Virus record (IMG/VR): IMGVR_UViG_3300013212_000088
Span: 128,001 to 192,000 of that record
Length of the DNA: 64,000 nt
Strand: one strand, 5' to 3'
Source of the DNA: a virus
Taxonomy: Duplodnaviria; Caudoviricetes
Shown here: positions 40,976-61,730 of the stretch, piece after piece
Position numbering within the stretch: the stretch's first letter is position 1
How the letters are laid out: every line of letters starts with the position of its first letter
The notes under the pieces: model-generated
Seen by the model: only the letters and a program-made list of their open reading frames with translations
The model's database searches: none
Told to the model about the DNA's origin: nothing
Made by a program: the position numbers and the translations under genes

Positions 40976-41830
40976 TTAACTGACTGTAATTTTACTCACA
41001 GCAAAATCGTTGATGAGAGCAAATCCGAGCTCTTCGTAAACAACCCATCCGAGACGAAGTCTCTTTGGATCGTCAGCTGGAAGAACGGTAATGTCTTGGC
41101 GAACTGGCATTGCACCAACGAATTGGGCAGGTGCTAGGACGTAGACAGCGTTCTTAGGAACCATGGTGCTGACGTGGATGTCTGCAGAGTAGATATGGCC
41201 GTAGAGACCGGTCATAAGGATGTCTCTTTGAGTTGCCTCATCGAAGAATTCCTTACCCCAGTTTCTGATATCCTTGTATCTTTGTGGGTGAAGAACAACC
41301 TTAGCACCGATGAGTTCGTGCTCTTCAATGAGAGTCAACGCAAGGTTGATGTTCTCTGGTTGAAGAGTACCGGAAACACTGATGGATTGGTCGGTTGGAA
41401 CACCGGCATTGATGACCTTGAAGACTTCAGTATCTTCTTGTCTTTGGAGGGAGTCCTTAGCACGGACTTGAGCTCTATCGACAATGTAGAATCTTCTTTG
41501 GCGAATCTCATTGAGTCTGATTTGTGGGTGAGCAGCAAGTTCAATTGTTGGAACGAGGAGCTCTTCAGCTTCGACTTCTGCGGATGGAACACCACCACGC
41601 TTAGGAATGACGTAGGACTTTACAGCAACGTCTCTTTCGTAGCGAGCAAGTGCGCCTTGTGGAAGCTCATCGACCATCAATAACTTACGACCAATTGCTT
41701 GGTACATAAGGGAGGTCTTGATTGGCTCGACCATAGCTTGTGCAAGAGCTGTACGACCTTCAGCGGTCTCGAGCGCCATTGCAATAATGGCCTCTCTTTG
41801 CTCGTTTGAGTTTCTCTTAATCATTGACAT
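40976..41830 (-). CDS. Major capsid protein (compact HK97 fold)
   Basis: 'ALAQAMVEPIK..YQAIGRKLLMVDELPQG', 'RAKDSLQRQEDTEVF', 'GWVVYEELGFALINDFAV'; last gene of the portal-protease-scaffold run; strong SD and C-ending codon bias. Confidence 0.8.
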   Translation of the reverse strand: MSMIKRNSNEQREAIIAMALETAEGRTALAQAMVEPIKTSLMYQAIGRKLLMVDELPQGALARYERDVAVKSYVIPKRGGVPSAEVEAEELLVPTIELAAHPQIRLNEIRQRRFYIVDRAQVRAKDSLQRQEDTEVFKVINAGVPTDQSISVSGTLQPENINLALTLIEEHELIGAKVVLHPQRYKDIRNWGKEFFDEATQRDILMTGLYGHIYSADIHVSTMVPKNAVYVLAPAQFVGAMPVRQDITVLPADDPKRLRLGWVVYEELGFALINDFAVSKITVS

Positions 41831-44299: not shown

Positions 44300-47200
44300 T
44301 TAGTCAATCCAAGTAATTGTAACGTCAAGTTTGCTTGGATTTTTCTTGTTTTGAGCAACGGTGGTTTTGGAAATATTTCCGCAAGAATGGCAGAAAGAAG
44401 TATCCTTAACCTTGTTAGCTTCTCTATTACCGCACTTAGGGCAGACCATACCAATTGGCAATCTTCTAGATGCTGTTCTGGTAAATCCTTCCTTTGCAGT
44501 TTCAAGATAAACATCTGCATCAACTGTAGCTGCCAATCTAAATAAGCCCTTAACAGAAGCTGTAGCTGGTAAACCAGGCATACCTGGTGCAGGCGCTCCA
44601 GGAGCTGCAGGTGCAGGTGCACCCATAGGACCGCCAACTGGCGCTCCAGCAGCAGGATCTAAATCTCCCATACCACGCATTTCTCCCATATCTGCCTCTG
44701 GTTCTTCATCCTTCTCGCCTTGTCCGCCTGTTCCATCAGAAATAAGCTTTAAGGACATTTGAATCTCATAAGTAGATCCACATGAATTACAGGAACCCTT
44801 TGATTCAGCAACATCTACATCATCAGAACCACAAACTGGGCAAACAGTACCCCATGGTTTCTTGTCACCAGGTTCCGACATTGCATCCATGTCTTCACCA
44901 ATAGGGGCATCTGCTGCCATTGGGTCTGTGGTCATAGCAGAAATGCCTGCTCCATTAAATGCTCCAGCGTTCATACCCATGTCAGGTGCTGCAGGAGCGG
45001 CCATTCCACCACCCATACCTTGTCCTGGAGCAGCCATTTGAGCATATCTATTTAAGATTCTGCTTCTTCTTTCATTTCTTGCCATTCTAGCTTCTTCAGT
45101 CATGAGAACTTGTGGTTCACCCATTTCTTCTTCAGGGCCAATTTCTCCACCAACCATAGGAACTTCAGAAACACTTTGTGCAGAGAATGATTTTGATGTT
45201 CTGGAAGATACGGTTGCAGTAATGTCACCATAAGCAGAAACGTTCAAATCTGTGAATGAGAATGTGTTAGGATCTACTGTAAATCCATTGCCTTGAAGAA
45301 CTTCCATTGCTTTTTGTCTAAAAGCATCTTCAAATCCCTCATCATTTGGCTTAAGACCATCTAAATCTTCAGTTCTACAAACAAATCTAATTGAATCAGA
45401 TGTTTCATGAGTAACTTGCATTGCTGCTGTTCTTTCAGCATTTTGCTTTGTTTCAATAGCTTTAACAATTAACTTTTCAGCTAATTCACCATCAGATACA
45501 AGCTTCTTAGCAGCTGTTACAATTGATTTAGTTGAAAGGTTGAAATTAGTAGCATAATCTGCCAACCATCCAATAACATTTGTTGAAAGATCAGTTTTAG
45601 AAGCAACTCTTTCGCCCCAGAATTCTCTTCTAGCTCTTGATTTCAATCTTGCACTAGTAGCAGAAGCTGTTCTTGCTTTGTTAACCTCAGCAACCATGGC
45701 TTCTTCATCCATTTCTTCAACTTCTTCAGCAACTTCTTCTGCAGTCGCTCCTGCTTCTTCTGCAGACATTGCCATAGCAGAGATAACTGACTTTAAATCG
45801 TTCTTAGAAATTAAAGCATCTCCAGTAACATTGCCTCTAAGTGCAGTTCTGAGTTCTTCTGATTTGGAAACCTTAGCTTTTGCTTCAGATGTAGAACCTT
45901 TAGCATTTGACATTTTTAATTCAGCAAGTTTTGTTACAGATTCCATTGTAAAATCAACTTCACTGGCTGCAACTCTAAGTGCTTCAGCAAGATCACCAGC
46001 AGTTACTGTCTTAGAAACTTTATTTCCTAAGGATGCAAGTACAGCTGTTAAAGGTGAAGTTGAAACTCTTTCACTCTTAAAGAAATCTGCTTTAGATGCA
46101 AGTTTTGCACGAACACTTGTACCAGCTGATGCTGTTGCAATCATTTCAGGTAAAAGTTCTTCATTTGCAAGTTTTGTTGAAGCTTCTACAACTTCAGATG
46201 GTGTGGAGTATGATTCAACTACAGCTTCGCCTAATGCTTCAACTGTATGAACCATAACTTCATGAGCTGGAGCAGAACCTTCTACTCTACAGCATTCCAA
46301 TCTTTCGTTAAGTCCTTCTTCAGAAACACCCTTATTAGCTTGTGCAACTAATTCAGATAAAGCTTCTTTGACATCAGCATCATTTACTTTATGACCATAA
46401 AGGCCAGCTGAGGTTAATGCTTCTTCACCATACTCTGCATTATCTTTTCTTAAAGATTCTAAAGATTCTTCTCTAGTCTTATCAGCATTAGGATCTGCAT
46501 GCATTGTTGCAACTCCGTCAGCTAAAGTCTTATAAGGAACGCCTTTTCTTTCGCCCTTAAGTTCTAATTCTTTGACATCTTTATCCATGTGAGGGGCCTT
46601 GATTGCAGTTTTAACAAAATCTTTAAGAAGATCTGCTGCAACTCTAGCACCTTGACCACTTTCCATGGCAGAAAGTTGTTGTTCAGAAAGAATTGGTTCC
46701 CAGTTTGATCTATTACCATTAGTGAATCCGGTAATAGAACCATCTGTTGAAAGAACTAAACGATTACCAGCCCCATCCTCAACCTTAAAATCGATTGTAA
46801 CGGCGGCTGCTAATTTTTTGCGTTGTTCAGACGCTATCTTAGCAAAATGATCCATTTGATTATTTCCCTCCGCCCTAAGAGAATGGGGCGTATTGTTTCT
46901 AATATTTTTATTTCGTTCATTAGCAACTCTAATAACGTTTTGAGTAACAGAAGCAATAGATGTATTATCTGACAATGCTTCTTTGAATTGAATCAATCCC
47001 TTAGTTAGTTTTATAAATGAACTATCTTTGGGTTGAGTTGATGTGCTGGCAAAGACTTCTCTTCTGCCATCTTTAGATGCCCATACAAGATTATGTGATG
47101 AAGAAGCTAATGCAACAGCTCCTCCAACGCCTTGCTGTCCACTTGTAAATAATGCAGGCTCTATCATTCTGCCTACATTTCCTGCTGGCATATAATTGGC

Positions 47201-48505
47201 AGGAGCAACATTACCTTGTTGAGGTTGTTGTGGTTGTTGTTGTGGTTGTTGAGGTTGTTGTTGTAATTGCTGTTGGTTTAGAGGTTGTCGTTCTTGACCT
47301 CCTCCAGTGTCAATTCCATCATCAATCATGTCTTGCATTGTTGATTGAAGATCTGCCATTGATTTAGTAATTTTGCCTACGTGCACTAAATCAACATTGT
47401 CTTTACGTGCAAACATATTCATCACAGCTACTTCTAAAAAGTTAAGTGATAAATTGATAAGATCTAAAATATTTAAACCAGCCCTAGGGTCAATTCCCAA
47501 AGCTCCTAAAACTGCTTGGACTGTTGAGTTTTGGTTTGCCCCTTCTCCAGCCATCAATTGTCCGCCTACTAAAGTACCGGCAGATTGAGCTAATTTAATT
47601 GAAGTTCTAGCGGTATTTTCTGCTACTCTTAAACATTCTTCATATTCGTGTCTTACAGTTGGGTCTGATGGAGCGCCTTGTTGAGCAACCACAATATTTG
47701 CAATTAATTCAGAAGCTTTCTTTTCAGCATCAGTGGCAGCATTAAGAATATCGTCAACATCGTAGATTTCTTTAATTTCACAAGTATCAAAGGCACCATC
47801 ACCTACACAAGAAAGCTCAATGAATTTTAAATCATAGTTTTCTTCATAAATGGATTTACCTGAACCGTTTTCTTTTTTGCCTTTCCATTTTTTGAGACAA
47901 GAACAATATTCTTTTTCTGTGTATGCTTTATTTCCGCACTTAGAACATATTCCATAGGCAACCGAACAGCCCATTGATACATCATGAATTACACCAGTGC
48001 GGATATTTCTAGCAATATCAGGATAAGCTTCTTCATCTACGAAAAAAGTACAATAAACACAATTTTCAGATTCTTCCCATTCAGCATAAACGACCATGCC
48101 TTTAGCTTGCTCAATATCATCATTCTTATGGTTAGTGTAAATTGGTACACCTTCGAATGTTTTATAAGCTGGGATTTTCTCGCCCTTAACTTCAACTTCT
48201 TTTAATAATTCAGCTTTAGAAAAATAGTCTCCATTATGATTGACTGTATCTGCATCAATGGATCTAGCTCTTACCCAAAGAAGTTTAGCGTCCTTACGAG
48301 CTTTCATTTCTTTGACAATATCGAAATCTTTATATTTTTCTAAAACTTCTGAAGGATCTGCATACAAAGATTGCAAACCAATCTTAGCAGCCTCTCTCAT
48401 TTGTTTGGAAGCAGTTTTAAGCATATGTTCTCTTGCAGTATTTCTGTCATGTTCGGTGAGAAAACTATTAATTGTTATAGGCCCACCTATTGCTACTCTG
48501 TACAT
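44300..48505 (-). CDS. Giant prohead protease with long C-terminal extension and terminal zinc ribbons
   Basis: 'NHNGDYF', 'YTNH' (His), 'DVSMGC' (Ser), 'FIELSCV..GA' in the first ~260 aa; C-terminal CPVC/CNSC/CPKC/CHSC. Start moved to ATG 48505 (AGGAG SD). Confidence 0.75.
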   Translation of the reverse strand: MYRVAIGGPITINSFLTEHDRNTAREHMLKTASKQMREAAKIGLQSLYADPSEVLEKYKDFDIVKEMKARKDAKLLWVRARSIDADTVNHNGDYFSKAELLKEVEVKGEKIPAYKTFEGVPIYTNHKNDDIEQAKGMVVYAEWEESENCVYCTFFVDEEAYPDIARNIRTGVIHDVSMGCSVAYGICSKCGNKAYTEKEYCSCLKKWKGKKENGSGKSIYEENYDLKFIELSCVGDGAFDTCEIKEIYDVDDILNAATDAEKKASELIANIVVAQQGAPSDPTVRHEYEECLRVAENTARTSIKLAQSAGTLVGGQLMAGEGANQNSTVQAVLGALGIDPRAGLNILDLINLSLNFLEVAVMNMFARKDNVDLVHVGKITKSMADLQSTMQDMIDDGIDTGGGQERQPLNQQQLQQQPQQPQQQPQQPQQGNVAPANYMPAGNVGRMIEPALFTSGQQGVGGAVALASSSHNLVWASKDGRREVFASTSTQPKDSSFIKLTKGLIQFKEALSDNTSIASVTQNVIRVANERNKNIRNNTPHSLRAEGNNQMDHFAKIASEQRKKLAAAVTIDFKVEDGAGNRLVLSTDGSITGFTNGNRSNWEPILSEQQLSAMESGQGARVAADLLKDFVKTAIKAPHMDKDVKELELKGERKGVPYKTLADGVATMHADPNADKTREESLESLRKDNAEYGEEALTSAGLYGHKVNDADVKEALSELVAQANKGVSEEGLNERLECCRVEGSAPAHEVMVHTVEALGEAVVESYSTPSEVVEASTKLANEELLPEMIATASAGTSVRAKLASKADFFKSERVSTSPLTAVLASLGNKVSKTVTAGDLAEALRVAASEVDFTMESVTKLAELKMSNAKGSTSEAKAKVSKSEELRTALRGNVTGDALISKNDLKSVISAMAMSAEEAGATAEEVAEEVEEMDEEAMVAEVNKARTASATSARLKSRARREFWGERVASKTDLSTNVIGWLADYATNFNLSTKSIVTAAKKLVSDGELAEKLIVKAIETKQNAERTAAMQVTHETSDSIRFVCRTEDLDGLKPNDEGFEDAFRQKAMEVLQGNGFTVDPNTFSFTDLNVSAYGDITATVSSRTSKSFSAQSVSEVPMVGGEIGPEEEMGEPQVLMTEEARMARNERRSRILNRYAQMAAPGQGMGGGMAAPAAPDMGMNAGAFNGAGISAMTTDPMAADAPIGEDMDAMSEPGDKKPWGTVCPVCGSDDVDVAESKGSCNSCGSTYEIQMSLKLISDGTGGQGEKDEEPEADMGEMRGMGDLDPAAGAPVGGPMGAPAPAAPGAPAPGMPGLPATASVKGLFRLAATVDADVYLETAKEGFTRTASRRLPIGMVCPKCGNREANKVKDTSFCHSCGNISKTTVAQNKKNPSKLDVTITWID
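47212..47285 (-). repeat. Gln/Pro low-complexity repeat inside the protease gene
   Basis: (caa/cct) tract encoding QQQLQQQPQQPQQQPQQPQQG. Confidence 0.8.
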
Positions 48506-48570
48506 AAATAAATTTTTCTCCTGCAATTGTTTAATGCTGAAACAATTTTAGACATTTACTCTAATTTCTC

Positions 48571-48652: not shown

Positions 48653-51031
48653 TTAAATCTTTATTTCATCTGGATCTTGTGCTTGAGATTTTCCACTTTT
48701 CTTTCGTATTGCTTGCATAACAACATTCAATACATCTTGTGGATGATCATTTAATTCTTTATCTGTAAATCTCAACATAACCCATCCATTAGAAGCAAGT
48801 TCAATATCTCTTCTTTTATCTTTTGCAATTTTTTCAGGATTGTTATGCCAAATTTCGCCATCTGCTTCAACTCCAATCTTAAGTGTTGGAATTGCTGCAT
48901 CTAATTGATAATCCATAGTAGGACCGGCTGAATATTGGGCATACAATGGATACGGTAGGTTAATAGAAAGTAAAAGACCATAAAGCTTCTTTTCTATTGA
49001 AGTAAACATTTGAGTTGTTGGTTTTTCCATTTTCTTTGCAGCATATACATTTCTTGTATCTTCACTATTTGCAAAGCTGTATTGTTCATATTCTGCGGCA
49101 TAATTTAATGCTTTTGAATAAGGACCACCAAAAGGTAATGGACTTATAACACCACCAAAACCATCATAAGTTTCAGGTACAGATCCAAGCCTACCACGTC
49201 CAGAAACAGGTGATAAACTTCTAAGAAAGCCTTCATGCGCTGCTGATTTAAATCTTCTTCCAGCAACCCTTACATTAATCAAACTTGAATTACTTTCCAA
49301 GTTTTCATAGTAAAGTTCATTCATAATAGAAGAAGCTAGTCTATAGTTTTGAATTGAGTTATTAGCCATAGGCATACCTGGCATTCCACCACCCATGCCT
49401 CCCATACCACCAGGAGGAGGAGGTGTCATTCCCATACCAGGAGCACCCATACCCATGTCCCCTCCACCAGCAGCTCCGAATCCTTGTCCAGTTACATCAC
49501 CAGATTGAAAACCATTATTAGTATCTAAATTGCCAAATGCTGGGTTTTGAACAAAGTTAGACCCTTGTTCAAATCTAAGTCTTTCAATTTCTTGATCAGG
49601 GTCTAGTCCAAATTGCTCAATAAGAGTCATGTTTGAAATAACACCATTTGAGTTAGCAGTGACAAGCATCTGCAACTTACCAGTGTCATCTCTTAATTGA
49701 AGATCATCAAACTTAATTGTAGGAAAGATAATTTCTTCTTGTCCTCTAACGCCTTCAATTGTAAAACCATTCCATTCAGCAACAGGTTTGAATACACATT
49801 GTTCAACCCATCTTGCCACTTCTCTTCTAAATGTCTCTAATCTCTGAGCCATTGCAAGGAGACCAACTTGAGCATTGCCATATGTTGGACCTTCACCATT
49901 GAGGAGAGCTTTGTTGAGCATTACACCATCTAGGATTTCTTGATCAATTAATTCATATTCATTAGTTAACTGGAGTACCTTTCCAGAAGCGCCAACATAA
50001 TCAAAGTCAAAAGCATGGTGAGTAACTAATGTAAGGTTAGGGTCGTTAGCAATTGCAGCCAACTCATCTTGAACTGAATCGAGGTCTTCTTGTGACGCTG
50101 GTCTTTGATCATTTCCTACCTTTACAACTTTAACTGGAAGGATATGTCTTTCTGCAACAATCCATTGAGATTGTCTTAATTTATCTTTATATGCTAATGT
50201 TGGAAATAATGGTCTGATAAGTGGGGTACCATAATCTTCCCAAGGGTTTGATCCATGTTTGAAATGGTGAATAGAAATAGGAGATAGTGGAATAGGATCT
50301 CCTTTCAATATAAGTTTTTTTACATTGTCAGGAATAGCATCATAATATTCTCTTGGTTGTCTCTCATTTACAATTTTGATTTCTTCAGGAGATGGTCTGT
50401 AAGTGTACATTCCAGGCTGATCAATCATACTAGGGGATTTAAGAACACTATCAGGATTTAATAAACATACAGATTTCCATGTTGCTCCATCATGTTTACA
50501 AGCTTCATTCTTTTCTTCGTCCCAGTTAGATCCTTGGCAATGCTCACAATCCAATGAAAGAAGAACAAATGCATCTCCAAGTAAGTGATAAACCTTTGAG
50601 ATTTCAGGAAGCCATTTTTGAAAGTTAATTTTTTCGATTAACTTTTCAAAATAATCTTTTACATATGATGAAGAACATTCCAATTTCCAACCAGAGAAAG
50701 GATAATTGGAATAAAAGTTAATAGCTGCAGCAATTTTTGGCTCGTTGTTTCTCCACCAGTTTGCCCAAAGATAAACTTCACGTCTAGCATTTGGAATCGA
50801 AAAAGACGTAGGAGTTAAAAATGGAGAATAGAAGTTTGGTGCGGTGGTCATTGTATTATTACCACCGGACATTTGTGCAGTTTTAGAATTAACAGAAGGG
50901 CCTAATCCACTTGTAATTCTAGAATAAGCATATTGACCTGAATATTCTGCCGATGAAACTTTCTCTCCCGATACATTTTGTGCTGCTGTTTTTAAAACGT
51001 TTGCTAATGTAGGCGCATTCTTGGAAATCAT
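48653..51031 (-). CDS. Portal protein with C-terminal DUF559 (Vsr-like) endonuclease domain
   Basis: Portal pattern 'EPKIAAAINFYSNYPFS', 'VYHLLGDAF', 'YGTPLIRP', 'VVKVG'; C-term 'IEKKLY..QY..LDAAIP..IGVEADGEIWH..KDKRRD..L..GW..LRF'. Confidence 0.8.
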   Translation of the reverse strand: MISKNAPTLANVLKTAAQNVSGEKVSSAEYSGQYAYSRITSGLGPSVNSKTAQMSGGNNTMTTAPNFYSPFLTPTSFSIPNARREVYLWANWWRNNEPKIAAAINFYSNYPFSGWKLECSSSYVKDYFEKLIEKINFQKWLPEISKVYHLLGDAFVLLSLDCEHCQGSNWDEEKNEACKHDGATWKSVCLLNPDSVLKSPSMIDQPGMYTYRPSPEEIKIVNERQPREYYDAIPDNVKKLILKGDPIPLSPISIHHFKHGSNPWEDYGTPLIRPLFPTLAYKDKLRQSQWIVAERHILPVKVVKVGNDQRPASQEDLDSVQDELAAIANDPNLTLVTHHAFDFDYVGASGKVLQLTNEYELIDQEILDGVMLNKALLNGEGPTYGNAQVGLLAMAQRLETFRREVARWVEQCVFKPVAEWNGFTIEGVRGQEEIIFPTIKFDDLQLRDDTGKLQMLVTANSNGVISNMTLIEQFGLDPDQEIERLRFEQGSNFVQNPAFGNLDTNNGFQSGDVTGQGFGAAGGGDMGMGAPGMGMTPPPPGGMGGMGGGMPGMPMANNSIQNYRLASSIMNELYYENLESNSSLINVRVAGRRFKSAAHEGFLRSLSPVSGRGRLGSVPETYDGFGGVISPLPFGGPYSKALNYAAEYEQYSFANSEDTRNVYAAKKMEKPTTQMFTSIEKKLYGLLLSINLPYPLYAQYSAGPTMDYQLDAAIPTLKIGVEADGEIWHNNPEKIAKDKRRDIELASNGWVMLRFTDKELNDHPQDVLNVVMQAIRKKSGKSQAQDPDEIKI

Positions 51032-59603: not shown

Positions 59604-61730
59604 TTATCTTATTCTTCCGCTCATATTAATCGTCCTTGACTTAGGTAATTGTTTTGCAATTTTAGCAAATAGTGCTTCATAAGCTACAGCTGCTACTGCA
59701 TCACAAATATCATCGTGATATCCAGATAGTGCTTCAATTGCAAATCTTTTACCTTTCCATTTTTTTTGAAGAAATAAGAATTGAGATTTAGCTTCTTTAA
59801 TTTCATTTAAAGGATGCTTATTTCCTGATTTATCTAAATATGCTCCACCGGAAACATCATAAATATCGATTCTGTCTTCTCTAATTAAAGTAGCCAATTC
59901 TGTGTAGATACTTTCTTTGTAGTTTTTATTAAATTGTTTTTCAACAATTGGTACACCTAAGCTTTGAAGTTTTATTACTGAAGATTGTGAGTTCCATTGG
60001 TCTATGCTTACTTGTCTAAATCTAAATCTTTTGTGTAAGTCTAAAACATATTCTTCAATAGTTTTTTCTTCAATTGGTTGATTCTTTGTCAATGGATTCC
60101 AGAAATGAATATGATCAATGACAATCCTTCTCATAATTCTTCCATCTGCACCCATTTGTCCAATAATAGCTTCAGTGTGTGCAACAGCTAAAGCATAGTA
60201 GTCAGATGTTCTTGCAGGGTCTAAATGGCAGAAATAATCATGCATTCCAAATCCTTTCTCAATTCTTCTTACCATGGACATTGATGAAAAGAATCTGTTA
60301 ATGTCATCTTCAGCAAACATAGGGTCAGAGGATGAAGCTCCAAACTCTGCTCCATATTGCATTTGATATTCTGTAGGATTTTTCTTCTTTTCTGACTCTA
60401 AGAAATCTCTATCAATATTGGGATTTACAAGCCAAGTAGGACCACGCATAACAAGTGTGGATGGATCATCTAGTCTGTTTTCGTGCAAATCATAAAGCAA
60501 ACCAATAGGGCCTTTAGGGTTTGAAAGCATCATCATCTTGCCATCTCTACCAAAAGTAGCAAGAGAAGGCTTTAGATCATTATATAAATCATAGTCAAGA
60601 CCAGAATCAGGATTGTCCCCAGCCATAGCAGCAATTTCGTCCATGATCACACTCCAACAAGTGAGACCAACGAGACCTGAAGCACTACTAGAACCACATT
60701 TTAAAACTAATGAACCAGAAAATAAGTTAAGACCCGCAGTTTCTCTTCTTTCATTTTCTTTACGGTCATTTTCAGTAAAAAAGCGCATTTCTAATTCTGT
60801 ATCTTTACCAATATAAGGTTGAAAAAATGGTGAAGCTAGAACAGTTTGTTTTAGTTTTGCGAAGATAGCATTTTTAGCTTGCTCCTCATTTTTAGCCACG
60901 TTTAAGAGATAAATGGCATCAAACTCCATCAAGCCATATCTTGCTTGAGGATGTCCCATAGAAATTAGCCTATAAAGTTCATATAAACCAATTGCAGAAA
61001 CAAGAAAGGATTTACCACTACGTCTTCCAAGCACCAATACTAATTCTTGAAACTTATATCTGTTTTCGCATTTGTCCATAATTTGCATTCTTAATTTTGG
61101 ATCAAACTCTTCAGAATATAATAAATCTTTCTCTGTTTGGAAGTTGTCTATATATGGTCTTTCTTGGAGTTGTTCAATCTTTTTAAATGCATCTGGGTTA
61201 GTTGCGTTATCTATTTCATTTTCAAATCTTTGTTGGATAATATCTTTATCCATACGATCACAAGTCAGACAAGGCGAATTAATTACAGAAAATGAAGCTT
61301 TAAAGGGCCTGTTTTGTTTATGCATTTCAACAGATTTATGTTCATTTTTCTTTACAAAGTCCCAAACACATCCGCTACATCCAACTCTTTCTTCTTCTGG
61401 AATATCTTGAATTATTAAATCTGTATTTCCTTCTTGTCCCATATAGAAACATTTTAGAATAAGTCTTTGTAAAGGATATGGCTTTAAATTACAAAAGTAA
61501 GGATGCTCAATAAAAGTTACAATGTCAACAATCTGATCAGGATTAAATCTTGTTTTCTCGGGTTTTAGCGGAGGGGCAATTTCAGATCTTACATTAGGCG
61601 CAACTTCATCAGCAAACTCTTCTGCATATTCACTGTCTTTGAACTTTTCTGACGCTAAATTTGCTTGTTGAATTAGTTGTTGTCTAACTTCAGCTTGTGT
61701 CAATGTAGCTTTGGATGCGTTTTTTCTCAT
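59604..61730 (-). CDS. terL: Terminase large subunit
   Basis: Walker A 'VLGRRSGKS', Walker B 'VIMDE', coupling motif 'LSNP', RNase H-like 'HLDPA' and 'HDDICDAVA'. Confidence 0.92.
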   Translation of the reverse strand: MRKNASKATLTQAEVRQQLIQQANLASEKFKDSEYAEEFADEVAPNVRSEIAPPLKPEKTRFNPDQIVDIVTFIEHPYFCNLKPYPLQRLILKCFYMGQEGNTDLIIQDIPEEERVGCSGCVWDFVKKNEHKSVEMHKQNRPFKASFSVINSPCLTCDRMDKDIIQQRFENEIDNATNPDAFKKIEQLQERPYIDNFQTEKDLLYSEEFDPKLRMQIMDKCENRYKFQELVLVLGRRSGKSFLVSAIGLYELYRLISMGHPQARYGLMEFDAIYLLNVAKNEEQAKNAIFAKLKQTVLASPFFQPYIGKDTELEMRFFTENDRKENERRETAGLNLFSGSLVLKCGSSSASGLVGLTCWSVIMDEIAAMAGDNPDSGLDYDLYNDLKPSLATFGRDGKMMMLSNPKGPIGLLYDLHENRLDDPSTLVMRGPTWLVNPNIDRDFLESEKKKNPTEYQMQYGAEFGASSSDPMFAEDDINRFFSSMSMVRRIEKGFGMHDYFCHLDPARTSDYYALAVAHTEAIIGQMGADGRIMRRIVIDHIHFWNPLTKNQPIEEKTIEEYVLDLHKRFRFRQVSIDQWNSQSSVIKLQSLGVPIVEKQFNKNYKESIYTELATLIREDRIDIYDVSGGAYLDKSGNKHPLNEIKEAKSQFLFLQKKWKGKRFAIEALSGYHDDICDAVAAVAYEALFAKIAKQLPKSRTINMSGRIR

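Follow-up and report, generated by a model that had tools for sequence, protein, structure and literature searches.

A portal protein with a C-terminal Vsr-fold nuclease domain in giant phages related to phage G

Can the portal of a tailed phage carry a nuclease of its own, and what would such a domain do inside the head? The question is raised by gene P0001 of an uncultured freshwater giant phage (IMG/VR record IMGVR_UViG_3300013212_000088), contained in the window analyzed here, a stretch of 64,000 nt corresponding to positions 128,001–192,000 of that record. To our knowledge, portals are viewed as passive rings and sensors, and all the packaging cuts of tailed phages are credited either to terminase or to helper nucleases that are distinct proteins. 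An earlier note, made from the sequence without database searches, described the gene as a portal fused to a DUF559 endonuclease.

The portal gene and its C-terminal extension

Both parts of the fusion lie in one open reading frame and exceed their Pfam cut-offs, with Portal_Mu (PF06074) spanning residues 219–463 (41.6 bits, cut-off 23.9) and DUF559 residues 704–775 (32.5 bits, cut-off 20.6; 37 bits in the genome search), which bears out that description and confirms that the portal-nuclease fusion in this gene is real. Likewise, PHROGs comparisons matched portal families along residues 46–489 (best E 3.8e-39) and phrog_503 along residues 663–782; REase_MTES_1575 reached 34 bits, under its own cut-off, and no Hint/intein domain was found in P0001 with Pfam. 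The segment delimited in the earlier note (48,690–49,560, residues ~491–780) comprises the tether, the spacer and the nuclease (Table 1).

Table 1. Position of P0001, its parts and the neighboring head genes in the 64,000 nt window.
Feature	Coordinates	Strand	Remarks
Portal-nuclease ORF P0001	48653..51031	(-)	Single uninterrupted 792-aa ORF
N-terminal variable region	50855..51031	(-)	Residues 1–59; poorly conserved, low pLDDT
Portal core	49544..50854	(-)	Residues ~60–496; canonical portal fold; last helix (478–495) is the crown
CxxC...CxH insert, putative zinc knuckle	50492..50548	(-)	C162, C165, C178, H180; within portal core
Disordered Gly/Met/Pro-rich tether	49367..49543	(-)	Residues 497–555; pLDDT ~33; composition scan
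Helical spacer	49019..49366	(-)	Residues 556–671; helix 559–589; conserved PV(S/T)GRG motif
DUF559/Vsr-fold EDxHD nuclease domain	48692..49018	(-)	Residues 672–780; Pfam DUF559, profile and Foldseek matches
Catalytic motif E722-A-D724-G-E-I-W-H729	48845..48868	(-)	Intein between E722 and residue 723 in ten relatives
Prohead protease-scaffold polyprotein, 1408 aa	44300..48526	(-)	Directly downstream of portal; similar G/M/P linkers
Major head protein, 284 aa	40976..41830	(-)	phrog_2522, E 1.6e-68
Large terminase TerL, 708 aa	59604..61730	(-)	phrog_2 at residues 216–688; ATPase and RNase-H-type nuclease motifs

The gene product is the portal protein of the phage. Its core was modeled by AF2 with a pLDDT of 80–95 and, in Foldseek comparisons, matched over 100 chains of solved portals (best E 1.7e-9, TMt ~0.6), including the portals of HFTV1, G20c, T4 (gp20) and lambda (E 1e-9 to 1e-6); additionally, the gene is located in the head module, between those for TerL and the protease-scaffold and major head proteins, all of them on the (-) strand. 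Portals are dodecamers in which the C-termini extend inwards from the crown, into the capsid. Because the portal fold is canonical and portal C-termini face inwards, we infer that each procapsid would be built with about twelve tethered nuclease domains around the capsid-side opening of the DNA channel.

Across the clade described below, the region joining core and nuclease ranges from 85 to 207 aa (median 109), with 58% of G, P, M or A, and the mean pairwise identity of the tether is 0.41. The Gly/Met/Pro linker noticed earlier was found as such (residues 509–566), but the several KxA-type motifs attributed to the following region were not, since a single K-S-A (K595) is conserved, and this only within the near subclade. 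The helical spacer (~115 aa) is itself specific to the near subclade, its HMM producing no match in more distant members, and shows a dN/dS of 0.13–0.37; it was poorly modeled in a short construct and better in the full-length model. We could not assign it to a known domain with Pfam, NCBIfam or the ESM Atlas, and neither Pfam nor NCBIfam matched a NUMOD or HTH DNA-binding module in residues 497–671. Its resemblance to the C-terminal end of the protease-scaffold polyprotein was limited to an 18-residue motif and was not significant (BLASTP E 4.5; hhalign E 0.014, probability 3%).

The terminal domain (AF2 pLDDT 82–93) has the fold and the set of active-site residues of NGO0050 (3HRL; profile E 1e-6, Foldseek TMt 0.82), of I-Bth0305I, the prototype EDxHD homing endonuclease (3R3P; profile E 8e-5, TMt 0.73), and of Escherichia coli Vsr (1CW0/1VSR; Foldseek probability 1.00). 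According to the active-site map of PMC3239194, Vsr residues E25, D51, the F62 position, H64, H69 and D97 correspond to portal residues E680, D711, E722, D724, H729 and D738. These six are invariant in alignments A1 and A2 and, among 86 cluster representatives, D711 and H729 occur in all 86, E722 and D724 in 84 and D738 in 83. The catalytic set read earlier as intact is indeed complete, with D711, E722-A-D724-G...H729, R741-D742 and G749-W750 all present, and the active-site residues predict that the portal C-terminus is a catalytically complete EDxHD/Vsr-fold nuclease. The dN/dS of the domain (0.03–0.08) is close to that of the portal core (0.03–0.06); being under such strong purifying selection, the domain is not degraded, and one of the two conditions that the earlier note had set for its own refutation thus fails. 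It is not a Vsr mismatch endonuclease proper, as it scored 16–21 bits against TIGR00632, far under the cut-off of 97.85, and residues 672–792 contain no Cys, hence no zinc site.

Distribution, descent and inteins

How often homologous portals carry the domain, a check proposed in the earlier note, has a clear answer: it is present in 113/113 complete representatives (clusters at 50% identity) of one monophyletic clade and absent from 16/16 outgroup portals. The latter include gp14 of Bacillus (Lysinibacillus) phage G (Donellivirus gee), the closest cultured relative, which is 32% identical over residues 41–496 and has the same Portal_Mu-like fold and head-module context, but is 648 aa long and lacks both the DUF559 domain and the CxxC...CxH insert; this insert is invariant in alignment A1 and falls in a gap of the alignment with gp14. 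No free-standing DUF559 was found in phage G by tblastn with the domain, nor any DUF559 in the available sequence of two fusion-less records of the sister clade. The fusion was found in no cultured phage of the collection searched, and our literature search, of incomplete coverage, retrieved no published description of it.

The same architecture occurs in over 230 independent clusters of sequences from five sources (JGI, ENA, NCBI, Logan and MGnify), and the covalent link is kept across ~70 IMG/VR loci with one exception; in none of them was the domain seen split off as an independent gene with a start of its own. The low-complexity tether is a frequent breakpoint of assemblies, with several loci stopping there at contig ends, and locus L056 has an in-frame TGA inside the tether, all of which could hint at the loss of a stop codon, at a chimera or at wrongly joined contigs. 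However, every complete in-clade relative has the fusion, and an artefact, the other refuting condition of the earlier note, is therefore already refuted.

Identities of the portal core and the nuclease domain co-vary (Mantel r 0.61, a value reached in 0/999 permutations), and divergence within the clade extends to ~32% core identity with no loss or degeneration of the domain. According to these comparisons, the fusion was gained a single time, at the root of a large group of uncultured giant phages related to phage G, and has since been inherited vertically with the portal core and never lost.

The portal family is an exceptional target for mobile elements, with one to five inteins in each of 93 of its 114 representatives. 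Inteins typically occupy conserved functional motifs, and in ten representatives one is inserted exactly in the E|xDG catalytic motif, a natural marker of the importance of that site. Together with I-Bth0305I being the closest solved relative, this abundance of inteins could suggest that the gene of a free-standing EDxHD homing endonuclease was once inserted behind that of the portal, became fused in frame and persists by cutting portal alleles that lack it (marker exclusion). We consider this improbable. A homing gene that has become fixed in a clade finds no more alleles to cut and should decay, whereas this domain keeps its low dN/dS; unlike I-Bth0305I, NGO0050 and Vsr, it is neither free-standing nor borne by an intron or intein, its distribution is not sporadic, and it lacks a NUMOD/HTH region detectable by Pfam or NCBIfam. 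The domain is monophyletic, never lost, in frame with the portal and outside any intein, and the single gain, the vertical co-inheritance with the core and the absence of loss thus oppose an active homing element.

Possible roles of a nuclease at the portal

The earlier note put forward three functions and gave preference to none: a domain that is clipped and ejected, one that assists in DNA-end processing, and a domesticated homing nuclease. Another possibility, that the portal domain substitutes for a missing terminase nuclease, was discarded because TerL retains its acidic RNase-H-type motifs, with D504, D510, D577, D673, D674 and D677 conserved in at least 95% of 58 relatives. TerL is divergent: PHROGs matched it, but Pfam Terminase_6N/6C and a sequence search of the PDB gave no match. 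The portal nuclease would then add to that of the terminase, not replace it.

The reading that we favor, with a probability of about 0.45, is that the nuclease domains remain at or near the portal and do housekeeping on the phage's own DNA during its passage; we place it ahead of release by the prohead protease and of a homing remnant. The tethered domains would act in cis on the DNA being threaded through the portal, perhaps nicking it, trimming it, or holding and releasing the first-packaged end, and their cutting specificity would come from position and not from a DNA-binding domain. In agreement with this, the covalent link is kept in nearly all loci, the portal fold is canonical, and most members of the clade have only a low-complexity tether with no candidate DNA-binding module. 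Additionally, phage helicases, which are DNA translocases, can likewise end in a DUF559 domain, and no MuF family match was found in P0001 or elsewhere in the 261-kb record. The module would fill the slot taken in other phages by portal-bound DNA-binding head proteins of the MuF/SPP1 gp7 type. Several observations weigh against it. The terminase nuclease motifs are intact, twelve active nucleases beside densely packed DNA look dangerous, and we know of no packaging or ejection step that requires an intracapsid cut. Likewise, phage G and the sister clade manage without the domain, and its function is therefore a clade-specific addition and not a universal need. A stronger form of this reading, which we regard as rather doubtful, makes the portal itself an enzyme acting on the genome during threading, for example through site- or structure-specific nicks, or through a quality-control or termination cut made from inside the head.

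The nuclease fold might also serve only as a DNA clamp or as a structural plug at the inner portal mouth, such as an anchor for the leading end or an internal core. The position at the crown and a 12-fold arrangement, which could form an internal body, would suit such a role, and Vsr holds its nicked product tightly. Nevertheless, binding-only descendants of nucleases usually lose their catalytic residues, whereas here all the residues for metal binding and general-base catalysis are strictly or almost strictly conserved throughout the clade and the intein targets the catalytic motif itself, all of which makes a non-catalytic role improbable.

A further observation against permanent tethering is that the tether resembles the linkers of the adjoining protease-scaffold polyprotein, which must be proteolysed, and this resemblance makes release by the protease plausible. 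The prohead protease encoded next door would cut the tether at maturation, and the freed nuclease of ~12–27 kDa, twelve per head, would exit with the DNA and, once in a new cell, act on DNA of the host, of plasmids or of competing phages, in the manner of the predicted MuF-nuclease toxins or of the packaged proteins of T4. We consider this outcome possible but, on balance, unlikely. The disorder, low complexity and variable length of the tether would suit it, MuF proteins sit in the same position C-terminal to the portal, and DUF559 also occurs as a stand-alone protein of ~105 aa (3HRL), suggesting that the domain could work alone. Conversely, unlike polymorphic effectors, the same domain is found in all the complete representatives, with no swapping and evolving as slowly as the core; fission is not seen in the ~70 loci; and the next gene codes for the protease, not for an immunity-like function. 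Neither did the 261-kb record, with a completeness of 73%, contain ThyA-like, TGT/DpdA or QueC hypermodification genes that might shield the phage's own DNA. A cleavage motif was not demonstrable either: no site could be assigned because the family of the protease part is only weakly hinted at by NCBIfam (HK97-type prohead protease) and the PDB yielded no match. The sequence S-I-E-K-K-L (residues 678–683) was rejected as cleavage evidence, since it equals the N-terminal T-x-x-E-x-x-L helix of the DUF559 family.

Comparison with known head nucleases and significance

The nearest parallels are of two kinds. MuF/SPP1 gp7 minor head proteins and MuF toxins are, like the portal extension, modules fused to or located directly after the portal; they are bound to it inside the head, where the extension would also lie. 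The toxins often have a terminal nuclease domain that is predicted to accompany the DNA, and in a set of 191 predicted MuF toxins nuclease domains were present in over half (Jamet et al., 2017; PMC5576092). The portal fusion differs in that it has no detectable MuF domain, no swapped toxin domains but one fixed nuclease, and no immunity gene, and in that covalent fusion would provide 12 copies, compared with one or two bound copies of MuF proteins.

The second kind comprises accessory packaging nucleases, which are not known to act in the capsid interior but work at the outer face of the portal, towards the terminase. HNH proteins of the HK97 gp74 type adjoin terminase genes. T4 endonuclease VII is reported to bind the portal gp20 (Golz and Kemper, 1999, as cited in PMC9958956) and T4 gp4 to be a head-completion nuclease (Benler et al., 2020, as discussed in PMC7824862). 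Endonuclease VII, gp4 and the HNH proteins are, like the portal domain, second nucleases besides TerL that are physically or functionally coupled to the portal or packaging apparatus, but they are separate proteins of other folds (endonuclease VII, TnsA-like REase and HNH).

In this clade of giant phages, large and widespread in the environment, the portal bears, on what would be its inner face, a nuclease domain whose predicted active site is complete and which is kept as strictly as the portal core. If the portal proved to be an enzyme, it would bring a second, portal-borne nuclease activity, apart from terminase, into the packaging machine of tailed phages. Tethered domains would imply a hitherto unrecognized DNA-processing step inside the capsid, and released domains a new way of loading an enzyme to be injected, in exactly twelve copies per head.

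Organization of the portal-nuclease protein

The 261-kb IMG/VR virus record from which the window derives (estimated completeness 73%) has a head module on one strand in the order large terminase (TerL), portal, protease-scaffold and major head protein. In the portal ORF, Pfam models matched Portal_Mu (residues 219–463; 41.6 bits vs. a cut-off of 23.9) and DUF559 (residues 704–775; 32.5 bits vs. 20.6), with a match below threshold to REase_MTES_1575, and residues 46–489 corresponded to portal families from PHROGs. With both domains above the Pfam cut-offs in a single ORF, and the same architecture in relatives, the portal-DUF559 fusion proposed in the earlier note is genuine. The closest cultured relative of this portal is gp14 of Bacillus phage G (32% identity, residues 41–496), which has 648 aa and, unlike the window protein, lacks the DUF559 domain.

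Features of the portal-nuclease protein, its head module and selected relatives (residues refer to the protein named)
Feature	Position	Strand	Description
Portal-nuclease ORF	window 48653–51031	minus	one ORF, 792 codons
Variable N-terminus	residues 1–59		poor conservation, low pLDDT
Portal core	residues 60–496		last helix 478–495; pLDDT 80–95
CxxC...CxH insert in core	window 50492–50548	minus	C162, C165, C178, H180; invariant in clade
Gly/Met/Pro-rich segment (tether)	residues 497–555		pLDDT ~33, read as disordered
Helical spacer	residues 556–671		helix 559–589, motif PV(S/T)GRG; moderate conservation
Short helix motif, portal	residues 562–575 (window ~49307–49348)	minus	similar in protease-scaffold
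Nuclease domain	residues 672–780		compact alpha/beta; pLDDT 82–93
TerL	window 59604–61730	minus	head module, PHROGs
TerL N-terminal extension	TerL residues 1–215	minus	~215 aa, ahead of Walker A motif
Prohead protease-scaffold protein	window 44300–48526	minus	head module; 1408 aa
Short helix motif, protease-scaffold	residues ~1329–1342 (window ~44501–44542)	minus	similar in portal
Major head protein	window 40976–41830	minus	head module
In-frame TGA, locus L056	L056:11678–11680		in tether, between portal core and spacer plus nuclease
Protease-scaffold polyprotein, locus L056	L056:12664–17967		1767 aa; ~360-aa insertion right after VSMG motif
Relatives compared for inteins	proteins P0123–P0239		e.g., P0234, 3003 aa; P0229, 2602 aa

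Domain boundaries were taken from an alignment of 22 relatives (A1) and two AlphaFold2 models. The full-length model matched more than 100 solved portal chains, including those of HFTV1, G20c, T4 gp20 and lambda, and by this match the core shares their fold. The C-terminal model matched the DUF559 protein NGO0050 (3HRL; TMt 0.82), the catalytic domain of the homing endonuclease I-Bth0305I (3R3P; TMt 0.73) and also E. coli Vsr; 3HRL and 3R3P were also found by the C-terminal profile from sequence alone (E 1e-6 and 8e-5, respectively). Across the clade, core and nuclease are connected by 85–207 residues (median 109), largely Gly/Pro/Met/Ala, whereas the helical spacer is confined to the subclade of the window portal; the universal part is therefore portal, floppy tether and nuclease.

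The CxxC...CxH insert, a possible wing-region zinc knuckle, faces a gap in phage G gp14 (residues 162–180 of the window portal). Separately, the portal and the protease-scaffold protein have a similar helix motif, [YF]-R-[LF]-A-[SA]-x4-[DE]-[IV]-Y, after a G/M/P-rich linker in both (hhalign E 0.014, with a probability of only 3%); this may be coincidence or point to an interior docking element common to the two proteins.

Distribution, age and selection of the fusion

All of the 120 best 90%-identity clusters from JGI, ENA, NCBI, Logan and MGnify, evident fragments aside, showed the same architecture. In an unbiased search, the portal core alone was compared with 1.84 billion 50%-identity representatives, and domain HMMs built from A1 were then applied: the C-terminal domain was present in almost all complete relatives with a core identity of at least ~39% and absent from those below ~37%. 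A maximum-likelihood tree of the core, inteins left out, grouped the 113 complete representatives that bear the domain in a single clade, which contains no complete domain-less member (five in-clade sequences end <60 residues past the core and look truncated), while the domain was absent from the 16 outgroup portals, phage G among them. Pairwise identities of core and nuclease co-vary (Mantel r 0.61; 0/999 permutations as high), which favours vertical inheritance of the two together over repeated gain. In comparisons with five close relatives, dN/dS was 0.03–0.08 for the nuclease domain and 0.03–0.06 for the core; for the spacer it was 0.13–0.37.

Among ~70 IMG/VR loci, the fusion occurs in every 3′-complete one except L056 (IMGVR_UViG_3300012000_000088), where homologous sequence continues in frame beyond the TGA without a convincing new start; this codon could be a nonsense mutation, a sequencing error or a site of readthrough. 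Several contigs terminate inside the low-complexity tether. In two sister-clade records (L083/L084; G001, G002), whose portal P0247 has 596 aa and no nuclease, we found no DUF559 in the available DNA (130–169 kb, ~80% complete). Likewise, no portal of the cultured phages in INPHARED carries the domain; the nearest DUF559 domains there are in helicase C-termini, in I-Bth0305I or beside methyltransferase genes.

The shared architecture, the single clade and the low dN/dS exclude both an assembly artefact or lost stop codon and a degraded domain, the outcomes that the earlier note had set against its claim, and its proposed check on the frequency of the domain in homologous portals gives 113 complete representatives in one clade and 0/16 outside it. 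The fusion is real, ancient and under selection. Gained once, without loss or decay, and with no DNA-binding module detected, the domain does not behave as an active homing element, and we consider it improbable that the nuclease is the remnant of a selfish element.

Active site and inteins

Residues E25, D51, the F62 position, H64, H69 and D97 of Vsr correspond to E170, D196, a conserved acidic residue, N208, H213 and D222 of I-Bth0305I, the F62 position being acidic in the EDxHD family (PMC3239194). From our reading of a profile alignment, the portal equivalents are E680, D711, E722, D724, H729 and D738, invariant in alignments A1 and A2. Among 86 representatives of 50%-identity clusters, D711 and H729 are conserved in 86, E722 and D724 in 84 and D738 in 83, as is E680 in all 82 with a residue at that position; the catalytic set is intact. 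A purely structural role for the domain is hardly probable. A Vsr orthologue was rejected, given a family score of 16–21 bits vs. a cut-off of 97.85 and no cysteine in the domain for a Vsr-type zinc site.

Inteins crowd the portal genes of the clade: of 114 cluster representatives, 93 have between one and five insertions, holding Hint and LAGLIDADG domains in the four scanned, and the sites recur at core-HMM positions ~31, ~50, ~105, ~290 and ~326 and in the nuclease motif E|xDG. The window portal has none. In ten representatives the nuclease domain itself houses an intein. The eight with the N-extein end recovered have the common junction ...GVE | C-L-H-P ... S-H-N | C-D-G..WH, which splits the E-x-D-G motif directly after E722. 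Conserved functional motifs are characteristic intein sites, and protein splicing must restore the interrupted motif exactly; an intein in the catalytic motif is an independent pointer to the importance of the nuclease. The insertion in the L056 protease-scaffold polyprotein, which begins C-F-P-K-G-T and ends V-H-N, then C, resembles an intein too, sitting where the prohead protease has its presumed catalytic serine motif.

Possible role of the tethered nuclease

To our knowledge, the C-terminus exits the crown toward the capsid interior in all solved portals. With the canonical fold, this would place twelve nuclease domains around the inner opening of the DNA channel in each procapsid. We favour, with a probability of roughly 0.45, a role in cis at the portal on the phage's own DNA, since portal and nuclease always stay covalently linked, the nuclease is as slow to evolve as the core, DUF559 is appended to DNA translocases elsewhere and a MuF/gp7-type portal-bound DNA-binding protein is missing; in most members there is also no candidate module for DNA binding, and the location at the portal would then provide the substrate. 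In the main rival, which we hold to be rather unlikely, the tether is cut by the prohead protease from the adjacent gene, and the released nuclease accompanies the DNA. The polyprotein of the protease itself contains G/M/P linkers similar to the tether, but we identified no cleavage site, and in the incomplete 261-kb record we found no DNA-hypermodification genes to protect the phage's own genome; thymidylate-synthase-like, TGT/DpdA and QueC families had no match in this 73% of the genome.

Replacement of the terminase nuclease was rejected: TerL, a divergent protein missed by the Pfam models Terminase_6N/6C, retains Walker motifs and RNase-H-type acidic residues (D504, D510, D577, D673, D674 and D677, each at least 95% conserved in 58 relatives). 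Its N-terminal extension has two Cys pairs (C-S-G-C and C-L-T-C) and is covered by no family match. MuF toxins are portal-associated head proteins with terminal nuclease domains (PMC5576092); this identity was also rejected, as neither the portal-nuclease protein nor the whole 261-kb record has a match to MuF (PF04233), and neither domain swapping nor an immunity-like gene was seen.

Nucleases coupled to packaging have precedents in T4 endonuclease VII, which binds gp20 (Golz and Kemper, 1999, as listed in PMC9958956), in T4 gp4 (Benler et al., 2020, as discussed in PMC7824862) and in HNH proteins next to terminase genes, although these are separate proteins with other folds and not fused to the portal. 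Our full-text literature search, of incomplete coverage and hence absence of evidence only, turned up no account of a portal fused to DUF559, and the jumbo-phage survey PMC7824862 mentions neither Vsr nor DUF559. The fusion combines known kinds, portal proteins and virion-associated nucleases, rather than being a new category, and the function of the fused nuclease is testable.
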